Below are positions 20,026-28,608 of a stretch of DNA of 64,000 nt, one piece after another; position 1 is the first letter of the stretch, and each line of letters opens with the position of its first letter. The stretch lies in assembly GCF_044324875.1 (NCBI RefSeq), contig NZ_CP172185.1, one strand, 5' to 3'. The notes under the pieces are model-generated. The model saw nothing but the letters and a program-made list of their open reading frames with translations. It had not been told where the DNA came from and made no database searches. The stretch is from Escherichia coli. Lineage in GTDB: Bacteria > Pseudomonadota > Gammaproteobacteria > Enterobacterales > Enterobacteriaceae. A program made the translations under genes and the position numbers.

Positions 20026-20086
20026 GGTATCCGTTCTGCTGAAGTGTCATGGCGTTGATTTTACGGTGACTCTTCGACAGTGAAAA

Positions 20087-20108
20087 GAAAAAAGGCCGCA
20101 GAGCGGCC
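20087..20108. repeat. attL core, direct repeat gaaaaaaggccgcagagcggcc
   Basis: Identical 22-mer at 57761-57782; seen in sequence. Confidence 0.7.
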
Positions 20109-20200
20109 ATAATTGCAATCAAAAATCAATAATTTAAATACTTATCAATCACTTAAGAACACATTAAAATACAAGCAACCACGCAAAACGACGTGAATGT

Positions 20201-20218: not shown

Positions 20219-20631
20219 TCGTCCCCTTCTTTCTCTTTGTTCTGTTGAACGCTAATTGCGACACACGTAGCAATCAAATCTTTACATTTCTCCATATCTT
20301 CTGTCTTGCGCAACTTGATGCTTGCCACCGATTGTGGATTATCCGCTGTGGCACAATGCATTGTTATTTCAATGTCGTTTCGATGAAAGAGTCCCATAAT
20401 AGCTTTTGCAACCTCCGTCCCTTTTTCCGCGATATCAAAGATCAAAGCAAGTTTATACAAAATATCACCAGAAAAACACTCAACCCTGCTAAGACCAACA
20501 TCACATAATGAAAAATATTGCTCAACGTCCCCCTGGAGTTCGGGAGCACACACAATATCTATTTTTCCGTACTGGCCTGAATAAAAGTCACTATTAACTG
20601 TTTTTTTCACAACATCCTCCTTCTTCAGCAA
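20215..20631 (-). CDS. hypothetical acidic protein at prophage left end (C-terminal region paralogous to ORF 56096-56311)
   Basis: 138-aa ORF overlapping 3' end of int; FHRNDIEITMHC...IKLRKTEDMEKCKDLI resembles FRRNDIEIELHF...VKLRHARDVQACQCLI. Confidence 0.55.
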   Translation of the reverse strand: MLKKEDVVKKTVNSDFYSGQYGKIDIVCAPELQGDVEQYFSLCDVGLSRVECFSGDILYKLALIFDIAEKGTEVAKAIMGLFHRNDIEITMHCATADNPQSVASIKLRKTEDMEKCKDLIATCVAISVQQNKEKEGDE

Positions 20632-21595
20632 TTGGATTAAACCTCACCGCATCCTGCAAATAATCCGGTGCAAGATGGGCATAAATCATCGTTGTCTGAA
20701 TCTTTGCGTGCCCCAGAATTTTCTGGAGCGTCAGAATATTGCCGCCGTTCATCATGAAATGACTGGCGAAAGTGTGGCGCAGCGCGTGAACGGCCTGCCC
20801 GTCAGGAATGGAAGGGGCAACCGCTTTTATCGAATCGCGCACCAGTGAATAATCCAGCGCCGGAAATACCAGCTTTCCGCCCCGTTTTTTAATTTTGTCA
20901 AACAGGCTTTCAGAAATTGGAACAGTCCGGTTTTTACTGTTTTTGGTTCTGGAAAATGTGATCCGGGAATGCAGAACGCGGCGCTGTTCAAGTGCCACCA
21001 CCTCACCCCATCGCGCCCCGGTAGATAAAAGAATTTCAGTAGCTAGCCGTTCGTCGGGATGCTCTACCAGAACGTCAAGCAGCTGGAGGCACTCCTGCCT
21101 GTTCAGATACCCCATTTCGCGCTCGCTGACCTTCATCCCTTTCAGTCCGCTAACAGGGTTATCATTCTGGAAGTGACCGGATGAGATGAGTGCGGAAAAC
21201 ATCGCGCTAAGCGCACCAACCTCGCGGTTTATGGTACTTGGCTGAATCCCCTCCTCCGCTCTTGCCACGCGTAATTCCGTTAACGTGGTGGCGTTGACGT
21301 TGTTAACACGCGGATCCCCCATCGCTTCACACACGCGCTGTAATTTGAGGCGTGTGTTCCACCCCGATTTCATCAGTTGCCCGTGAAACTTCCACCATAA
21401 TTCGATAAGTTCGGACAACGAACGGCGATCGGTCGGCGCACTGTTCCATGCGTTATTTTGGTGTTGAGCTAAAACCCAGCGTTCGAACTGGATAGCCTCC
21501 GACTTTGTTTTGAACTTTTTACGAATGCGTTTACCTTTGCGCCCATCAGGACGCATATCAACCATGTAGCCACCAGGGATTGATTTTATGCTCAT
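20594..21595 (-). CDS. int: tyrosine-type site-specific integrase (P2 Int-like)
   Basis: Translation MSIKSIPGGYMVDMRPDGRKGKR...; C-terminal ...HALRHTFASHFMMNGGNILTLQKILGH...YAHL catalytic region; start chosen at ATG 21595 inside longer ORF. Confidence 0.9.
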   Translation of the reverse strand: MSIKSIPGGYMVDMRPDGRKGKRIRKKFKTKSEAIQFERWVLAQHQNNAWNSAPTDRRSLSELIELWWKFHGQLMKSGWNTRLKLQRVCEAMGDPRVNNVNATTLTELRVARAEEGIQPSTINREVGALSAMFSALISSGHFQNDNPVSGLKGMKVSEREMGYLNRQECLQLLDVLVEHPDERLATEILLSTGARWGEVVALEQRRVLHSRITFSRTKNSKNRTVPISESLFDKIKKRGGKLVFPALDYSLVRDSIKAVAPSIPDGQAVHALRHTFASHFMMNGGNILTLQKILGHAKIQTTMIYAHLAPDYLQDAVRFNPIAEEGGCCEKNS

Positions 21596-21644
21596 TGGCA
21601 TACCCCCAGCGTCACAAGCCCACCGTGCCCCCAGCGTTCCATAA

Positions 21645-21953
21645 TCAGCCGTGCAGTGTGCCAGTCTTGCGGACTTTTTGAGAAGGTGATGTGCTTTCTG
21701 GCCCATCAGGGGAGAGAGTCGGGCTGATCTGCCCAGCAGCCTCGTTTGTTTTTCCCGTCATGAGCCAATTCATGTACTTAAAAAAACGAGGATGATTAAC
21801 AATCTTGACGAGAGCTTCGCCGCCGACATTCTCAATCCGACCTGTCTCATAACGGCGTAGAGTACCGATAGGTACATCAATCAGTTCACAAAACTCTTCA
21901 CGCGTTAACCCTTCCGACTCACGAATTACTCTGATTTTTTCACCAATAAACAT
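21645..21953 (-). CDS. immunity repressor (P2 C-like HTH protein)
   Basis: 102-aa HTH protein upstream of int and divergent from early operon; recalled resemblance to P2 C. Confidence 0.7.
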   Translation of the reverse strand: MFIGEKIRVIRESEGLTREEFCELIDVPIGTLRRYETGRIENVGGEALVKIVNHPRFFKYMNWLMTGKTNEAAGQISPTLSPDGPESTSPSQKVRKTGTLHG

Positions 21954-21992
21954 TGACAGTGTTCCTATCAGTACAGTATTCTTGATTTCAAG

Positions 21993-22010
21993 GTGTACTT
22001 ATAAGTACAC
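21993..22010. promoter_or_regulatory. perfect 18-bp palindrome GTGTACTTATAAGTACAC in the repressor/early divergent intergenic region (putative operator)
   Basis: Seen in sequence; flanked by a second inverted repeat gtattcttg...caagaatac. Confidence 0.5.
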
Positions 22011-22050
22011 AAGAATACAAATAGCCACAGACTGGAAAGGTTACCACATC

Positions 22051-22329
22051 ATGACAAAAGTCTTGAACACATACGGGGAGACGGACTTCAACAAGCTGGC
22101 GGCAATGTACCCCTACCGTGATGAGCATGGACTGCCAGTTCTTGAGGAAAGCCTTGAGGACTACGCCAAACGAACCAATCAAGCCCTGAACACTGTTAAA
22201 AAACAGGTCGACAGAGCGCAGATCCCTATAAATCAGCATAAAAAAGGCGGGAAACGCACAGTAAATCTCTACGCAATTTTTCTGAAAACCATCATAAACG
22301 CAGAGAAATATGTACTCATGACGAAATAA
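22051..22329 (+). CDS. first early gene, Cox/Apl-position small protein (function uncertain)
   Basis: 92-aa ORF from ATG 22051 divergent from repressor; positional analogy only, no recognised similarity to P2 Cox. Confidence 0.4.
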   Translation: MTKVLNTYGETDFNKLAAMYPYRDEHGLPVLEESLEDYAKRTNQALNTVKKQVDRAQIPINQHKKGGKRTVNLYAIFLKTIINAEKYVLMTK

Positions 22330-22359
22330 CTATTTTCCGCAAATAACGAGGGCAACAAC

Positions 22360-22575
22360 ATGACCCCAAGACAAAAATTAACTACCAGCAATAATGATGT
22401 ATTAATCTGTTCAAATAAACACGTAGTGGCTGCAACAAAGGTCGGCTCATTAATCACTATTCACTTTGCTAATTTCAGCCTGGAGATACAGACCAATAAC
22501 GAGGGAGAAGCCGCAGCATACATGAATGTATTGAAAAACTCCCTGCGAGAAAAAAGAAACACCGAGGTGCAATAA
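22360..22575 (+). CDS. hypothetical early protein
   Basis: 71-aa ORF in early operon. Confidence 0.45.
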   Translation: MTPRQKLTTSNNDVLICSNKHVVAATKVGSLITIHFANFSLEIQTNNEGEAAAYMNVLKNSLREKRNTEVQ

Positions 22576-22883
22576 TGCGAAAACATTATTCACAACCATA
22601 TATCCGTAACAGTGCGCCACGCAGCAATAACCGCTGGAGCCTGCGCGAAACACACGCAACACCGGGCGGTCACGTTGTAAAACAAACTGGCGAACACACC
22701 TGGCTGATTGAGCAGGCTGGACTCGTGATCCACAGATGTAACCGCAATCCGTTTACCGGAAACCGCATCTTTGCGCTGAGCAGCGGCGACAACCAGTTCG
22801 GGCAGGATTTCACGCTACACGAAGCCCTGCGAACTGCCGACCGCTTAATTGCGGGGCGCAGCTTTCAGCACCCGGATTATTAA
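22575..22883 (+). CDS. hypothetical early protein
   Basis: 102-aa ORF, start overlaps previous stop. Confidence 0.45.
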   Translation: MRKHYSQPYIRNSAPRSNNRWSLRETHATPGGHVVKQTGEHTWLIEQAGLVIHRCNRNPFTGNRIFALSSGDNQFGQDFTLHEALRTADRLIAGRSFQHPDY

Positions 22884-22922
22884 AAGTCGGCTTAATAAGC
22901 CGTGAACCAGTCTTAATAAGAC

Positions 22923-23180
22923 ATGAGAGGCGATAAGATGAAAAGAGCCTACAAAGAAATCGCTAACGACATACTTCAGAATTATCACCTAACCCTTGCA
23001 AACGAGGGTGTCGCCTATGATGAGCAATCGTTCCGCGCAATGCAGGGTGGGATTCTTGGGCTGTATATCGCCGCCACAGCCAGCGGCGACCTCGAAGCGC
23101 TGGCAGAATTAAAGGTTATCTATCCGAAAGAACTTGGCGAAGACCTGATTAAACCCTATCTCATTGAGGAGCTGGCATGA
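22923..23180 (+). CDS. hypothetical early protein
   Basis: 85-aa ORF (alternative start MKRAYKEI at 22938). Confidence 0.45.
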   Translation: MRGDKMKRAYKEIANDILQNYHLTLANEGVAYDEQSFRAMQGGILGLYIAATASGDLEALAELKVIYPKELGEDLIKPYLIEELA

Positions 23181-23302
23181 ATATTCTTATCTCGTGGTTA
23201 ATTCTCATCCTCGCCATTATTTGCGCGGTGGGAATCATGCGAATTATTAACGGCATTAAAACCATCGAATCATTATTTACTGGCGACAAGCGCCATAAAT
23301 AA
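23177..23302 (+). CDS. small hydrophobic membrane peptide (41 aa)
   Basis: ATG 23177 overlaps previous stop (ATGA); MNILISWLILILAIICAVGIMRIINGIK...; below the 60-aa ORF track threshold. Confidence 0.35.
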   Translation: MNILISWLILILAIICAVGIMRIINGIKTIESLFTGDKRHK

Positions 23303-23382
23303 ATAACCGGAAATTACCAGAAAGCAAGAAAACATCCGCAACGGCGGAGGGATTCCCTTACGCCTGAAATAAGGAGCAGCGA

Positions 23383-23598
23383 ATGAGTAAACCACTAACC
23401 AGCATTGAGCGAAAAATTGTTTTTATGAATGTGGCAGGCGTGCAGTTCGAAGTGGATAAGCAGGTCATCGTCTCCGAAACGAGATGCCCGGCAGCAGGTG
23501 AGCAATGCACCTACCTGACACTGGCAGACGGCACGCAAATAACCGCCGTCACCGACACCATTCGCGAGCTTGTGATTATCAGAGGGGTTAAACGATGA
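23383..23598 (+). CDS. hypothetical early protein
   Basis: 71-aa ORF with AGGAG RBS upstream. Confidence 0.5.
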   Translation: MSKPLTSIERKIVFMNVAGVQFEVDKQVIVSETRCPAAGEQCTYLTLADGTQITAVTDTIRELVIIRGVKR

Positions 23599-23807
23599 CC
23601 AGCAAATACACCACCAACGCACGCAAGCCAGGCAAGGAGGCACGTCATCACATTGCCGTTCTGCGCAATCTCATCATGTGCGAAATCGACGACTTTGTGG
23701 CGGGACTGGGCCAGCCGGGCGAGCCAGCAACACCGGGCGAAATACACAAAGAACTACGCCGCCGCATAGAAAGCGCGGTGGATTACGTCATGAACCCGAA
23801 CGACTGA
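23595..23807 (+). CDS. hypothetical early protein
   Basis: 70-aa ORF, start overlaps previous stop. Confidence 0.5.
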   Translation: MTSKYTTNARKPGKEARHHIAVLRNLIMCEIDDFVAGLGQPGEPATPGEIHKELRRRIESAVDYVMNPND

Positions 23808-23847
23808 CCAGAACGCGAGCGCGCGCCGGATGACGCACGCATAACGC

Positions 23848-24333
23848 TTAGCGGGAAGCGCCAACCGTAAGGCTGGCAATGATTTTTTCGGAGAGTGAGA
23901 GAGATTCGCGATGATTAAGACCAAGAGCAGCACAAGCTTTATTGCGCGCCGGGTTGTCCATGCATTCAAGCACCGGAGAGTCCTGCTTCTCAATTTCCAC
24001 CAGTCGCGCCAGCAACACCTCCGTGCTGAGACCGTCGCTTTCAGTAATCAGGACGTTATAGCGATGAGCCTGTTCTTTTGCAGCCTGAGCGCGTCGCCCA
24101 AATTTCCAGGCGATATTGCAGCCACTAAGCACAGCCACGATACCACCCAGCAACCAACTGAAATTGCTGTCTGCAAACACAGTAGCCCCAGACGTAAGGA
24201 TGACAGCATTAATCACCGTATCCATACGGCGGTTAAACACCTCCGAAATATGTTCAAGCCAGTAACTGTTCCAGAGACGAAACATGACCTCGTGTCGCCG
24301 TTCGGCATGATTTTCAGTTGGTTGTCTGTTCAT
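23848..24333 (-). CDS. hypothetical membrane protein with a two-helix hydrophobic hairpin, opposite strand to early operon
   Basis: 161-aa ORF; hydrophobic stretch INAVILTSGATVFADSNFSWLLGGIVAVLSGCNIAW. Confidence 0.5.
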   Translation of the reverse strand: MNRQPTENHAERRHEVMFRLWNSYWLEHISEVFNRRMDTVINAVILTSGATVFADSNFSWLLGGIVAVLSGCNIAWKFGRRAQAAKEQAHRYNVLITESDGLSTEVLLARLVEIEKQDSPVLECMDNPARNKACAALGLNHRESLSLSEKIIASLTVGASR

Positions 24334-24576
24334 TGCGGTTTAACCCTCCTCATCATCTCGCCCCTGCCCTTTTTCAGGCGCGGGAGCCGGTTGCCGTGGC
24401 ACATGAAATTTATCGCTATCAGACATTTATTTTTTCCCGTGTGTTGTTGAACAAAGTGCCCGCACAGTTTTGACGGAACGGCGGGCGCTTCAAGCGTAAC
24501 ACACCCTTCTTTTCCGGTTGAAGGCGAAAAAAACCGGACAGCTACCCGACACAAACCAGACCAGCGGAGAACTGCC

Positions 24577-25131
24577 ATGTACGCACTTAAACCTATGGGG
24601 ATACCAGGCAAAGCCCCGGCGCATGTGAAAGCCTGGACACAGCAGGAAGATGATTTGCTGATCACCCTGTACCCGCAGCACACAGCACGAGATATCGCCG
24701 GGCGTCTGGGGCGCAGCCACGAAGGCGTGAAGAGCCGCATTTGTCGTCTGCGTGAACAGGGCAGGATTGGCATCAAGCAGCAAAGACTAAGCGATGAGAT
24801 GATCGCCACGCTCATCAGGAACCGCCACACCAGGTCCCTCAAGGAACTGGCACACATGGCGAAAGTTTCGACACGCACGGTAACCAACCGATTGAGGGCG
24901 CTGGGCTACAGCCTGATCAAATGCGGGGATCTGCATAAAAACACCGTCTACAGCGACCGCATCGTTGAGATTATCAGACAGTTACACGACGAGCAGGGCC
25001 TGACGTTCAGGGAAATCGCACAGCGCCTTAGCCACGAACTACAGCCGAACCCTACCCCGACACTGGCTCAACGTCTCTACTGGCGGTGCACAGCATCCGA
25101 CGCCGTATTCCGTGAACTGTTACCAGATTGA
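24577..25131 (+). CDS. putative DNA-binding protein with three HTH-like repeats
   Basis: 184-aa ORF with three similar ~35-aa segments rich in R/K after short helices. Confidence 0.5.
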   Translation: MYALKPMGIPGKAPAHVKAWTQQEDDLLITLYPQHTARDIAGRLGRSHEGVKSRICRLREQGRIGIKQQRLSDEMIATLIRNRHTRSLKELAHMAKVSTRTVTNRLRALGYSLIKCGDLHKNTVYSDRIVEIIRQLHDEQGLTFREIAQRLSHELQPNPTPTLAQRLYWRCTASDAVFRELLPD

Positions 25132-25454
25132 GCAATCACCATGTACACACAAAAAAACCGCTTGCAACAACAAACCGGAACAGGGTACGCTTCCCCCGCA
25201 CCTCATAAAGCGGGTGCCGGGTTTCGCAGCCTGCTGACTAGCAAAGCGCACAACCGCGCCAGCGGTTTTTTTGTGCGTACTGTATTGCCACGTCTTTTTC
25301 GCATCAGAATTATGGTGGGGCGTACGGGGCCGACTTCGGTCGGGCCGGTTTCTTCGTTTGCCGGTGTTGAGAACCCCGTACGTCTCGCCACCCCGAGATT
25401 CTCAACTCTGGTTGGTGAGTATCCAAAAACTCACAAACGAAGAGGCCAAACACC

Positions 25455-25673
25455 ATGGCAAACCGCAAACAGCGCCGCGCTATCGCTGCGCAGCGTCACA
25501 TCCAGACCGAAATCAACCGCAGACTCTTCCGCGCCCACAACATCGCGCGAATCATGCACGCCAACATGCTGCATGAACGCAGTAACGCGTTATCAAACCT
25601 CTATTCCGCTTCCGTTTTCAGCTATCTGGCGGACGACCTGCGCGAGCTGCAAGACCTCATTAACCAGCACTGA
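25455..25673 (+). CDS. hypothetical early protein
   Basis: 72-aa basic ORF. Confidence 0.45.
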   Translation: MANRKQRRAIAAQRHIQTEINRRLFRAHNIARIMHANMLHERSNALSNLYSASVFSYLADDLRELQDLINQH

Positions 25674-25745
25674 TAAACAACCCGAAGCCATCCTGCGCCC
25701 GTTCGCGGGAGGCTTCCGCACATCTGTAGTCGGGAGGATTGCGCC

Positions 25746-26114
25746 ATGATTCTGGCTGACGATTTTCTGGAGTACCTGAACAACACCGAGCGCGACCTGT
25801 ACGCGCGCGTTCTCACCCGTTACGAGAAATACAAACTTTCGCTGCCAGAACATCAACTCCGCGAAGGCGATATCGACATTGAAGGGCGCTACATCGTCAG
25901 GCACCTCATAGCGGGCTACGGCATCTGGCGTGTCACCGGACGTGAGCATTCATTGCTGACCATCTGCCAGAGTCCGTCCGGCGTGATAACGGAGATCGTC
26001 GCTGATAGTCTGCGACTCACCCATCACAGCGCCACCCCGGAAGAAACGCTGGCAGAAACCCAGCGTCTGTGTCGCGTCATTGCCAACGCCGCCCTCCGCG
26101 CAGACAGGAGGTAA
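25746..26114 (+). CDS. hypothetical early protein
   Basis: 122-aa ORF immediately upstream of gpA. Confidence 0.5.
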   Translation: MILADDFLEYLNNTERDLYARVLTRYEKYKLSLPEHQLREGDIDIEGRYIVRHLIAGYGIWRVTGREHSLLTICQSPSGVITEIVADSLRLTHHSATPEETLAETQRLCRVIANAALRADRR

Positions 26115-26117
26115 GCG

Positions 26118-28292
26118 ATGGAGTTCGTCAGAGACTGGCAAAAACCGCGCCCCGCTATCGGGCGCGAAGGCTTACCCGTACCTGAAACCGCACTGGATAC
26201 CATCCTGAAGTGTTACCGCGCGGACGAAGAGCGCGCCCTGAACGCTGAAGAGCAGGGTCATCCGCTTGCGGGCACAACCATCGGTAACGCGATCGACAAG
26301 TGGGAAGGCGCACAGGAGCGCCAGGAAGAGGCCATCACGCTCACACAGGAAGCGAAGAGACGCCCACCCACCCTCATTGAGGAAACCCTCAAAGAGCTGG
26401 ACACCCTGCCAAAGTGGTTGAGGCTGCCACTGATTAAGTACCTGAACTTCTTAAGGCGCAAACAGGAGGACGAACAGCAGAAAGGCAAGCGCGGCAAGGA
26501 CACCCGCAAATATGAGCGCTTCCTGAAAAACGGCATCCCCGCACGTCTTCGCCGTATTCGTGAGATTAACGCTCGCTTTGCACCGTTAAGTTTTCAGGCC
26601 GCTGCCATGCGCGAGAGTCTGGAAGAGTTAATCACACTGCCGAACCTGAGCCGTGAACGCATCCAGAAAATAGCCGTACTGCTTGCCAGCGCCGTTAAAA
26701 TGCATCTTGCCGACGCAATGGACAAGGCCCGCGAAATAACAGGGAACGACAAAGACGACAACCTGAACAACTGGCTGATTGCCTACCAGTATATTGGTCG
26801 CCGTGTCCTGAAGCTGGGGATCACCCCACCATACTGGAGCGCCCTTGAACTCCGTCCCGACCGCAGAAGCCCCCCGGACCTGACACTGGTACCGGGCGCT
26901 GTTTTGCGCCTGAACGACGCCGAATGGTGGAATAAAAAACTTCGCCAGATGCACGACGTCTGGCGTGAGGAACTTTTACGTGCAGCGGGCCTTGTATCCC
27001 GCCAGACCTCCATTTATGTGAGCCGGGAAGCGCTGGCAGACTTCCGCGAGAAACAGGCCCGTACCCGCGATTTTCTCAAAGCGCACGACGTGGAGAACGA
27101 AGACGGCGAACGCATCAGCCTGGAAGATATCTACTACGCCAGTACATCCAACCCGCATAACCGCCGCAACGAGATGATGGCGTGCGTCAAGGGAATGGAG
27201 CTTATCGCACAGGAACGTGGCGACGTGGCCTTCTTCGTCACGGTCACAGCCCCGTCTCGTTTTCACAGCGTCACCGACGCCGGTACCCTTAACCCGAAAT
27301 ACAAAGGCACAACAGTAAAAGACGCCAGCGACTATCTGGTTTATAACTTCTTCGCCTCCGCCCGCAAACTCATCAAAAAAGAGAAGCGGGGCTGGTACGG
27401 CATTCGCACCGTGGAGCCTCACCACGACGGCACGCCCCACTGGCACATGCTGGTATTCACAAGCCCCGAGAACGAAGCGCGCATCACGGAAATCATGTGC
27501 AATGCCGCCATCCGTGAAGACCGTGCAGAGCTGGGCGACGACATTACCCCGCGCTTCAAGTGCGAGAAGATAGACCCCGAAAAAGGTACGCCAACCAGCT
27601 ACATCGCCACCTACATCGGCAAAGGCATTGACGCCGCCGCATTCGGCGACACGGATCCCAAAACAGGCAAACCGCCCGTTGACCACGAAAGCGGAAAACC
27701 TATGGCGGACACCGTGGAAAACGCCGTCGCCTGGGCACGCCTGCATCGCATTCGCCAGTTCCAGTTCTTTGGCCTTCCCTCACGTCAGGTGTGGCGCGAG
27801 TTCCGCCGCCTTGCCGGACAAATGGCACGCAACCCGAAGGGGCCGCAGGCACTGACCAACCCCAAAGCCGACGCCCTCCTTGTTGCAGCCGATACGGGGT
27901 GTTTTGCCAGCTACATCATGCATCAGGGCGGTGTGCTCATTCCCCGCAGTGAATATCTGGCCCGCACGGCCTACGTCACCGCAGAAGAGCCGAACAACTA
28001 CGGCGAGTTCCCCGACCGTATTTACGGTGTACGGATGCCGGAACTGGGCGATGAGTTCACGTTATGTACCCACCCGGAAGAGTGGAAAATCGTCAGAAAG
28101 GAACCGGAACCAGACAACCGCACGGGCGAGGGTTTTGACCTTCAGGGCGACCCCGTCGCCCCTTGGACTCGTGGCAATAACTGTCACCCTGACGAAAAAA
28201 ACAACCAACAACAGCACACAAACAGAACAGTCAGAGTGGGCAAAACTGCCCCCCTTACCCCCATCGTCGGACGGTTTTGTGAGCTGGTTTAA
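26118..28292 (+). CDS. replication initiation endonuclease (P2 gpA-like rolling-circle Rep)
   Basis: 724-aa ORF with HxH metal motif (PHWHMLVF) and downstream Tyr-containing ...YIATYIGKG...; P2 gene order. Confidence 0.85.
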   Translation: MEFVRDWQKPRPAIGREGLPVPETALDTILKCYRADEERALNAEEQGHPLAGTTIGNAIDKWEGAQERQEEAITLTQEAKRRPPTLIEETLKELDTLPKWLRLPLIKYLNFLRRKQEDEQQKGKRGKDTRKYERFLKNGIPARLRRIREINARFAPLSFQAAAMRESLEELITLPNLSRERIQKIAVLLASAVKMHLADAMDKAREITGNDKDDNLNNWLIAYQYIGRRVLKLGITPPYWSALELRPDRRSPPDLTLVPGAVLRLNDAEWWNKKLRQMHDVWREELLRAAGLVSRQTSIYVSREALADFREKQARTRDFLKAHDVENEDGERISLEDIYYASTSNPHNRRNEMMACVKGMELIAQERGDVAFFVTVTAPSRFHSVTDAGTLNPKYKGTTVKDASDYLVYNFFASARKLIKKEKRGWYGIRTVEPHHDGTPHWHMLVFTSPENEARITEIMCNAAIREDRAELGDDITPRFKCEKIDPEKGTPTSYIATYIGKGIDAAAFGDTDPKTGKPPVDHESGKPMADTVENAVAWARLHRIRQFQFFGLPSRQVWREFRRLAGQMARNPKGPQALTNPKADALLVAADTGCFASYIMHQGGVLIPRSEYLARTAYVTAEEPNNYGEFPDRIYGVRMPELGDEFTLCTHPEEWKIVRKEPEPDNRTGEGFDLQGDPVAPWTRGNNCHPDEKNNQQQHTNRTVRVGKTAPLTPIVGRFCELV

Positions 28293-28329
28293 GTCGCTTA
28301 AGAGGCCGGACAGGAAAAAACTACAAAGA

Positions 28330-28608
28330 TTGCTCAAAAAACGCACCGAAGAGAGTCGCCAGAACGCCAGCGGCGGCACCGACACACCCACCGACACCAT
28401 TAACCTGGGCGTTGTGCTGCCGGAACTGCCGGAAATCGTGCAAGTCCGCCGCGATCTGGAAGCGCTGGGCGCGGACTTCCCCGAAGCAATGGCCCATTCC
28501 GTCTTTATGGGTGCCCGCGTTCGTCTGGGTGACGGTCGCACCGTTCACCGCGACGAGCAGACCGGGCGCATCACCGTCACCAGTCTGCAACCGGAGGCGA
28601 AACCATGA
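28330..28608 (+). CDS. small ORF after gpA (possible TTG start; alternatively ATG 28489)
   Basis: Open frame from gpA stop to 28608, stop overlaps next gene start; start codon unresolved. Confidence 0.3.
   Translation: MLKKRTEESRQNASGGTDTPTDTINLGVVLPELPEIVQVRRDLEALGADFPEAMAHSVFMGARVRLGDGRTVHRDEQTGRITVTSLQPEAKP

Follow-up and report, generated by a model that had tools for sequence, protein, structure and literature searches.

Why should a minus-strand gene stand among the plus-strand early genes of a P2-like prophage, and what might it do there? The gene occupies positions 23848..24333 (minus strand) of a 64,000 nucleotide (nt) stretch of the Escherichia coli contig NZ_CP172185.1 (assembly GCF_044324875.1). 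The whole stretch is referred to as the window. An initial annotation described a 161 amino acid (aa) open reading frame (ORF) with a two-helix hydrophobic hairpin and its own flanking intergenic sequence, and took it for a moron such as a superinfection-exclusion or abortive-infection effector. Comparison with related loci shows that the gene is part of a mobile accessory cassette, in which a SLATT-like gene, a co-conserved upstream micro-ORF and a conserved leader lie antisense in lytic operons. In the window the cassette is best read as 23848..24538 on the minus strand, with three predicted parts. These are a structured leader with a candidate promoter, a proline-rich micro-protein of 28 aa, and an inner membrane (IM) protein of 161 aa whose translation is probably coupled to that of the micro-protein.

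The minus-strand ORF starts with ATG and lies among plus-strand early genes, as originally described. Its protein has 24 close homologues of 54–99% identity and essentially constant length. A wider search at E≤1e-3 recovered 102 clusters at 50% identity, nearly all of 150–170 aa, and homologues of constant length reach down to ∼25% identity. The protein matches PHROG 6315, a family of unknown function, with E = 5.6e-51. The ratio of non-synonymous to synonymous substitution rates (dN/dS) is ∼0.15 between the window and locus L004 (loci other than the window carry L numbers), and 0.07–0.17 in other pairs with unsaturated synonymous sites. The RefSeq E. coli records examined annotate the gene on the minus strand. 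A plus-strand ORF of 179 aa (23911..24450) overlaps it. In view of the homologues, the dN/dS values and the RefSeq annotation of the minus-strand gene, this plus-strand ORF is very probably spurious. The opposite strand is annotated, as a hypothetical protein, in Yersinia phage vB_YenM_42.18 (gene 008, 7812..8477 of L002) and in Fels-2 (STM2733.1, 3914..4318 of L053).

The gene is not solitary, as it had been treated. The 243 base pairs (bp) upstream, taken for intergenic sequence, hold a 28-codon ORF and a structured leader, and a divergent isrK/C4 RNA module lies adjacent. All three had been overlooked. The micro-ORF (24340..24426, minus strand) encodes MSDSDKFHVPRQPAPAPEKGQGRDDEEG. Its stop is separated by 6 nt from the start codon of the main gene, whose Shine-Dalgarno sequence (GAGGAGG) falls within the last codons of the micro-ORF. 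An equivalent ORF of 26–48 codons was found directly upstream of the main gene in 20 loci, with its stop 3–12 nt before the main gene. These loci span the whole family, down to ∼25% main-protein identity, and include E. coli and Enterobacter P2-like prophages, the Yersinia phage, Fels-2, 186-like prophages, phage EKP1, and lambdoid prophages of Snodgrassella, Providencia and others. The micro-proteins have a nearly invariant core, H-x4-P-x-P, as in FHVPRxPAPxP, to which those of lambdoid prophages add a polyproline run and a basic tail. In the comparison of the window with L004 the micro-ORF has 10 synonymous and 2 non-synonymous differences (dN/dS ∼0.03), so it is more constrained than the main gene (∼0.15 for the same pair). 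A PHROGs search with seven micro-protein sequences found no family. The micro-ORF is unannotated in vB_YenM_42.18, Fels-2 and the RefSeq E. coli records examined.

Micro-protein and main protein were also joined by a linker and modeled using AlphaFold. Residues 11–20 of the micro-protein had a predicted local distance difference test (pLDDT) score of 63 compared with 36–37 for the linker. Read as per-residue confidence only, the model gives a weak hint that the two proteins might be in direct contact. An RNA hairpin masking the ribosome-binding site of the main gene was considered and rejected; the junction of micro-ORF and main gene folds no better than shuffled sequence (z = −0.71).

The leader (24505..24538, minus strand) contains two interdigitated stems in the order a-b-a′-b′ with conserved pairing. 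Stem A is formed by TCCGGTT (24538..24532) and AACCGGA (24519..24513), and stem B by CCTTC (24524..24520) and GAAGG (24509..24505). Such stems are found ∼80–110 nt upstream of the micro-ORF in every P2/186-like cassette and most lambdoid cassettes. Both stems are readable in 18/18 leaders compared, and a strict non-overlap script detected them in 12/18 leaders versus ∼1% of shuffled sequences. Watson-Crick pairing is kept across 6 arm variants of stem A and ∼10 of stem B, CCATG/CATGG, CCACG/CGTGG, CTAC/GTAG and CCTCA/TGAGG among them. The loop between a′ and b′ is only 1–3 nt, so the two stems are probably mutually exclusive alternatives. Folding is more stable for the sense strand, whose mean minimum free energy is −14.2 kcal/mol compared with −12.0 kcal/mol for the antisense strand. 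The stems were tabulated sequence by sequence because MAFFT misregisters some rows, and for the same reason RNAalifold recovered only the core of stem A from the leader alignment. Rfam had no match at the leader and no recognizable non-coding RNA (ncRNA) in the cassette. The leader may be an RNA switch, a 5′ stabilizer or an element of the antisense early transcript.

Candidate expression signals flank the two ORFs. A TGnTAnnnT block, TGTTACGCT (24493..24501, minus strand), is conserved at the aligned position in P2/186-like cassettes, and could either serve as an extended −10 element or pair with the 5′ arm of stem A. In two lambdoid cassettes, L007 and L008, a perfect TGTGTATAAT is found at a similar distance upstream of the micro-ORF. 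Between the TGnTAnnnT block and the micro-ORF lies a second leader hairpin, GCCCGC...GCGGGC (24458..24486, minus strand), and inverted repeats occupy this position in 6/13 P2/186-like leaders (the window, L004, L016, L031, L050 and, with 5 bp, L053). Downstream, no obvious terminator is seen in the 40 nt that separate the two convergent stops. A consensus scan alone picked out a weak terminator-like hairpin (23754..23769, minus strand) ∼80 nt past the stop of the main gene, inside the convergent plus-strand gene.

The initial annotation called the gene a moron and not a core replication gene, and advised checking for its absence from related prophages. Both the label and the check held up. Using blastn, cassette DNA was found in 33/5426 complete E. 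coli genomes, and a divergent subfamily in 12 further E. coli genomes, compared with 2510/5426 genomes carrying a P2-type gpA. Among 50,697 phage records 3–5 have the cassette versus 384 with GpA; megablast against the phage records gave no match. The cassette occurs in unrelated phage types and in differing positions, and most relatives lack it. In Fels-2 it lies on 781 nt between fil and STM2733, and SEN8 has 86 nt at the same site. The flanks of the two phages are 85–89% identical. The difference at the site is a clean replacement, and the gene is present or absent between collinear close relatives, as expected of a moron. Other relatives matched the Fels-2 query at the same coverage, ∼69%, in two pieces. 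No mention of the family, its accessions or the Fels-2 locus tags was found in the literature searched, and in the PANGU preprint SLATT comes up solely for an operon of another, unrelated type.

The divergent subfamily (L033–L047; for example 4983..5438 of L041) is 33–39% identical to the window protein, and has neither the micro-ORF nor the NRR-x-D motif before helix 1. The 5′ end of an isrK/C4 module in divergent orientation is ∼145 nt from the start of its gene, and a promoter-like TTGTGT-16 nt-TATAAT precedes the gene.

The cassette is almost always antisense to its neighbors. In every P2/186-like locus examined (the window, L001, L003, L004, L014, L002, L011, L050 and Fels-2) the cassette lies antisense in the early lytic operon. 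In lambdoid prophages (L005–L008, L013, L049) it lies in the early-left (PL-side) operon beside cI, again on the opposite strand, and in L007 it is a few genes downstream of N. This position and orientation are those of the lambda sieB slot. In phage EKP1 the cassette is antisense between the Q antiterminator and holin genes. In the window and related E. coli prophages it is divergent from the module of isrK and C4, which places it at the boundary of two transcription units and not in the middle of one. Known exclusion genes occur near the cassette in lambdoid and 186-like prophages, namely RexA/RexB, a BstA-like gene and Abi_alpha (9296..10601 of L005, 9924..10847 of L007, 9960..10793 of L011). 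The cassette thus tends to sit among defense cargo near the immunity region.

The window protein was divided into an amphipathic N-terminal helix (aa 1–38), hydrophobic helix 1 (aa 39–54; 24172..24219, minus strand), hydrophobic helix 2 (aa 59–78; 24100..24159, minus strand) and a helical soluble C-terminal region (aa 79–161). The proposed hairpin is confirmed, with one reservation. AlphaFold predicts one long helical hairpin (residues 6–54 and 59–101) followed by four short helices, with a pLDDT of 82–94 across nearly the whole protein when a more diverse alignment is supplied, and family-average hydropathy has two clear peaks of ∼2.05 at residues 40–54 and 61–75. The segments of the window allele itself are short, ∼4 residues apart and only moderately hydrophobic (best 19-residue Kyte-Doolittle means 1.18 and 1.56), and the earlier description left out the 38-residue amphipathic helix that precedes the hairpin. 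Arg/Lys clusters lie on either side of both hydrophobic segments. By the positive-inside rule this suggests that both termini are cytoplasmic.

The arrangement in the AlphaFold model and hydropathy profile, an N-terminal helix, a tight two-helix transmembrane (TM) hairpin and a C-terminal helix, is that of the SLATT fold. SLATT stands for SMODS and SLOG-associating 2TM effector domain, and these proteins are predicted pore formers. The window protein matched NCBIfam SLATT_4 with E = 0.099 and 12.5 bits compared with a cut-off of 55. Among 20 other members the best NCBIfam SLATT score was 21.4 bits, with member E-values from 1e-4 to 0.16, and the family consensus scored 24.8 bits (E = 1.6e-5). 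SLATT_4, SLATT_1 or SLATT_fungal was the best or a recurring NCBIfam match in most members tested, in a colinear register. Foldseek against AFDB50 returned family members along with more distant proteins labeled SLATT/DUF4231 in UniProt, with TM-scores of ∼0.65–0.7. Against viral models the top matches were giant-virus SLATT proteins (9–15% identity, E ∼1e-2, probability 1.0). The window protein is read as having a SLATT-like fold and as probably an outlying branch of the SLATT superfamily, with scores short of the cut-off for formal membership.

Other assignments were set aside. Solved structures matched only as generic helical hairpins (ESCRT-III, PspA, BAR domains) with E>0.8, and were treated as meaningless. 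A weak Pfam ATP-synt_I match over the hydrophobic hairpin is probably compositional and was rejected as non-specific, and a PHROG Rz-like match (E = 0.045) is at chance level. A class II holin or pinholin, typically a two-TM protein of ∼70–100 aa whose gene belongs to the lysis cassette and shares the strand of the late operon, was rejected for a 161-aa protein with a 38-aa N-terminal helix, encoded in the early region and on the opposite strand where it does lie beside lysis genes (EKP1).

The prophage in the window is P2-like (Peduoviridae-type) and is inserted beside btuC. The integrase (20594..21706) and C-type repressor (21645..21953) are on the minus strand. From the Cox-like gene (starting at 21982), through a run of small early genes, to gpA, all other early genes apart from the cassette gene are on the plus strand. 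At higher coordinates than the cassette are a 184-aa D5-like DNA-binding gene (24577..25131), isrK (25198..25272; 64.7 bits using Rfam), the C4 antisense RNA (25308..25395; 79.2 bits using Rfam), a 'derepression protein' gene (25455..25673) and, after it, the replication endonuclease ORF of gpA (26118..28292), all on the plus strand. With isrK and C4 in its early region, this P2-like phage has an RNA immunity module of the P1/P4 type. Over 1000 E. coli genomes share ∼0.5 kb of the module at ∼84% identity, mostly in P4-like satellites where the annotation is 'ash family / derepression protein'.

Several further features of the prophage were recorded. gpA (26118..28608) is split near 28195, where the window has 8 A compared with 7 in the intact 829-aa homologue of CS5L (L001), which yields a 724-aa ORF and an overlapping 242-aa ORF. 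Either the prophage is defective or the extra A is a sequencing error in the homopolymer. One complete genome, E. coli H14 (NZ_OY754371.1), covers 93% of the early region (∼21900–26200) at 99.3% identity. At least 80% of the region is covered in 9 genomes, of which two, L001 and L003, were examined and have the prophage at glsA/ybaT. The window integrase is only 43% identical to that of L001 (16501..17514). The different integrases and insertion sites (btuC versus glsA/ybaT) suggest that the integration module has undergone mosaic exchange. Between btuC and the integrase, a sub-threshold Rfam match to the enterobacterial sRNA STnc540 (20026..20147, minus strand) scored 29 bits compared with a gathering score of 38.

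What might the cassette do? On the strength of the SLATT-like fold and the sieB slot, superinfection exclusion or abortive infection, as first proposed, is plausible by analogy. We favor a self-contained, two-gene moron that is expressed in the lysogen and acts in abortive infection or exclusion through a membrane effector under control of the micro-protein, and hold this reading tentatively, a little short of even confidence. We infer each step of the following mechanism. The cassette would be transcribed in the lysogen from its own promoter, against the repressed early lytic operon. P22 sieB, for comparison, is a prophage gene with expression in the lysogen (PMC10461980). The membrane protein would be a latent SLATT-type effector that forms pores or otherwise perturbs the membrane. 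SLATT proteins are predicted effectors of this kind, and one is required for DRT10 defense, where the proposal is that it acts as a toxic effector under restraint (PMC12632851). The micro-protein would restrain the effector. It could be a labile partner resembling an antitoxin, or translation of its proline-rich ORF could gate the coupled synthesis of the effector. A superinfecting phage would upset the balance, the effector would damage the membrane and the infection would be aborted, a niche corresponding to that of sieB in lambda and P22. On induction of the carrier, strong early transcription running antisense through the cassette would silence it and spare the lytic cycle.

A bolder version would make this a new phage-borne class of abortive infection. 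It would combine a SLATT-like pore lacking a nucleotide-signaling partner, a micro-protein that is a labile inhibitor or a translation-dependent gate, a two-stem leader switch and an antisense off-switch, and would serve as an analogue of SieB across P2/186-like, lambdoid and other phages, Fels-2 included. We regard this version as possible and on the doubtful side.

A number of results weigh against the favored reading. No member tested, nor the consensus, reached a curated NCBIfam SLATT cut-off (35–55 bits), and Pfam SLATT matched neither the consensus nor any of 84 members. The short hydrophobic segments may instead support a re-entrant or peripheral association with the membrane. Homology to lambda SieB was rejected; hhalign of the 84-member alignment gave a probability of 0.3%, and Pfam SieB matched none of the 84 members. 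PADLOC-DB 2.0 protein models yielded 0 families at E≤1. In ∼25 contexts no SMODS, SLOG, TIR or reverse transcriptase partner was found beside the cassette, and its neighbors are ordinary phage early genes. The distant member L052 is on the same strand as its neighbors. A two-hexamer sigma-70 scan of 23300..25300 found no promoter. One E. coli lineage (L014, L020) has a frameshifted micro-ORF and the divergent subfamily (L033–L047) has none, with the main gene intact in both; the micro-ORF is therefore not an indispensable antitoxin for every member.

The alternative that survives best, which we nevertheless judge unlikely, is a role in the life cycle of the phage itself. The product would be a host-takeover, lysis-timing or lysogeny-stabilizing factor, or antisense transcription would damp a leaky early operon. 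The cassette is convergent with the early promoter and no terminator separates the convergent stops, and in the E. coli P2-like prophages it stands at the boundary of the Cox-side early genes and the replication block controlled by isrK/C4; in EKP1 it abuts the lysis genes. Yet purifying selection acts at the protein level on both ORFs, which shows that the proteins matter. A life-cycle gene is also not expected to be missing from most relatives, or to move between unrelated phage types and positions as this cassette does.

T4 Imm, P22 SieA and HK97 gp15 block the entry of phage DNA. Exclusion in this narrow sense, in which the hairpin protein would prevent entry without killing the cell and the micro-protein would be accessory or regulatory, seems somewhat less probable still. 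The cassette shares with those genes an accessory, apparently prophage-expressed layout and a small IM product with both termini probably cytoplasmic, and having no sensor or enzymatic partner it fits a passive block. A SLATT-like fold, however, points to a pore-type effector. The periplasmic turn of ∼4 residues offers little to the periplasmic side, the usual meeting place of the injection machinery, and the lambdoid slot is that of sieB, which is abortive, and not that of sieA.

An addiction module is improbable. Here the micro-protein would be a labile antitoxin and the membrane protein a toxin, stabilizing the prophage with no anti-phage role. A small ORF followed 3–12 nt later by a larger one is type II-like, and a disordered proline-rich peptide would be prone to proteolysis. 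Against this, the main gene is intact where the micro-ORF is broken or missing, and post-segregational killing brings little gain to an integrated prophage. Addiction overlaps with the favored mechanism and does not exclude it. The idea that the minus-strand ORF is a chance ORF antisense to a plus-strand early gene, for which the two phage records annotated on the opposite strand and the overlapping 179-aa ORF could be cited, is already refuted by the conservation pattern, with constant-length homologues down to ∼25% identity, a minus-frame dN/dS of ∼0.1–0.17, a conserved hydrophobic hairpin and motifs, an AlphaFold pLDDT of 82–94, and the RefSeq E. coli annotation of the minus-strand gene.

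SLATT proteins are widely predicted to be the killing arm of several bacterial immune systems. If the reading as a membrane effector under micro-protein control is true, a SLATT-like protein with a 28-residue partner and a short leader would be a much simpler system than CBASS or DRT10 in which to study how such proteins are restrained and triggered. Since Fels-2 of Salmonella Typhimurium LT2 carries the cassette, as do P2-like prophages of E. coli, the cassette is readily testable in model strains. Its position suggests that P2-like phages have a second site for accessory cargo directed against other phages, the early operon, besides the cos hotspot. The antisense embedding is recurrent and may be a way of tying moron expression to the lysogenic state. 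There is also an annotation problem, with a micro-ORF missed in RefSeq E. coli records and the wrong strand called in two reference phage genomes.

How does the cassette compare with known systems? With the SLATT superfamily (NCBIfam SLATT_1 to SLATT_6 and SLATT_fungal, and the Pfam clan including DUF4231) it shares an N-terminal helix running into TM helix 1, a tight turn, and helix 2 running into a long cytoplasmic helix, in ∼150 aa. Structural matches to SLATT-labeled proteins, recurrent colinear matches to hidden Markov models below threshold and a phage-conflict context add to the likeness. It differs in its best score, 24.8 bits compared with a cut-off of 55, and in having no nucleotide-generating enzyme or reverse transcriptase. 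Its partner is a proline-rich micro-protein of 28–48 aa, and the gene is carried by temperate phages, antisense in lytic operons. DRT10, composed of a UG17 reverse transcriptase, an ncRNA and a SLATT protein, likewise has a SLATT-type membrane protein as presumed toxic effector and is found on mobile elements of E. coli. The cassette has no reverse transcriptase gene or ncRNA recognizable by Rfam, and control is presumably exerted by the micro-protein or leader and not by cDNA.

SieB of lambda and P22 (PF14163) resembles the lambdoid members in its early-left slot by cI on the opposite strand, and has two hydrophobic helices followed by a charged helical region. It lacks the long N-terminal helix. 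Esc, which gives P22 sieB its self-immunity, is reported (Ranade and Poteete 1993) to be made in frame from within the gene, whereas the cassette has an upstream micro-ORF. Like the classical morons (P2 tin, old and fun(Z), HK97 gp15, lambda rexAB), the cassette is an accessory insertion that brings candidate regulatory sequences of its own and that close relatives lack. The P2 hotspot of Rousset et al. 2022 is next to cos (PMC9122126). The related E. coli prophages L001 (25452..26959) and L003 (17473..18965) use this site, which separates gpA from the portal gene, for a DUF6516 gene accompanied by a transcriptional regulator and for a toxin of the RelE family accompanied by a helix-turn-helix antitoxin. 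The cassette differs from such cargo in lying inside the early operon on the opposite strand. With type II toxin-antitoxin systems the small-first order and 3–12 nt spacing fit, while the micro-ORF is frameshifted or absent in two lineages with an intact main gene. The SLATT-like effector and the prophage moron are thus known themes, and what is new here is the micro-protein partner, which is unprecedented, together with the characteristic antisense placement.

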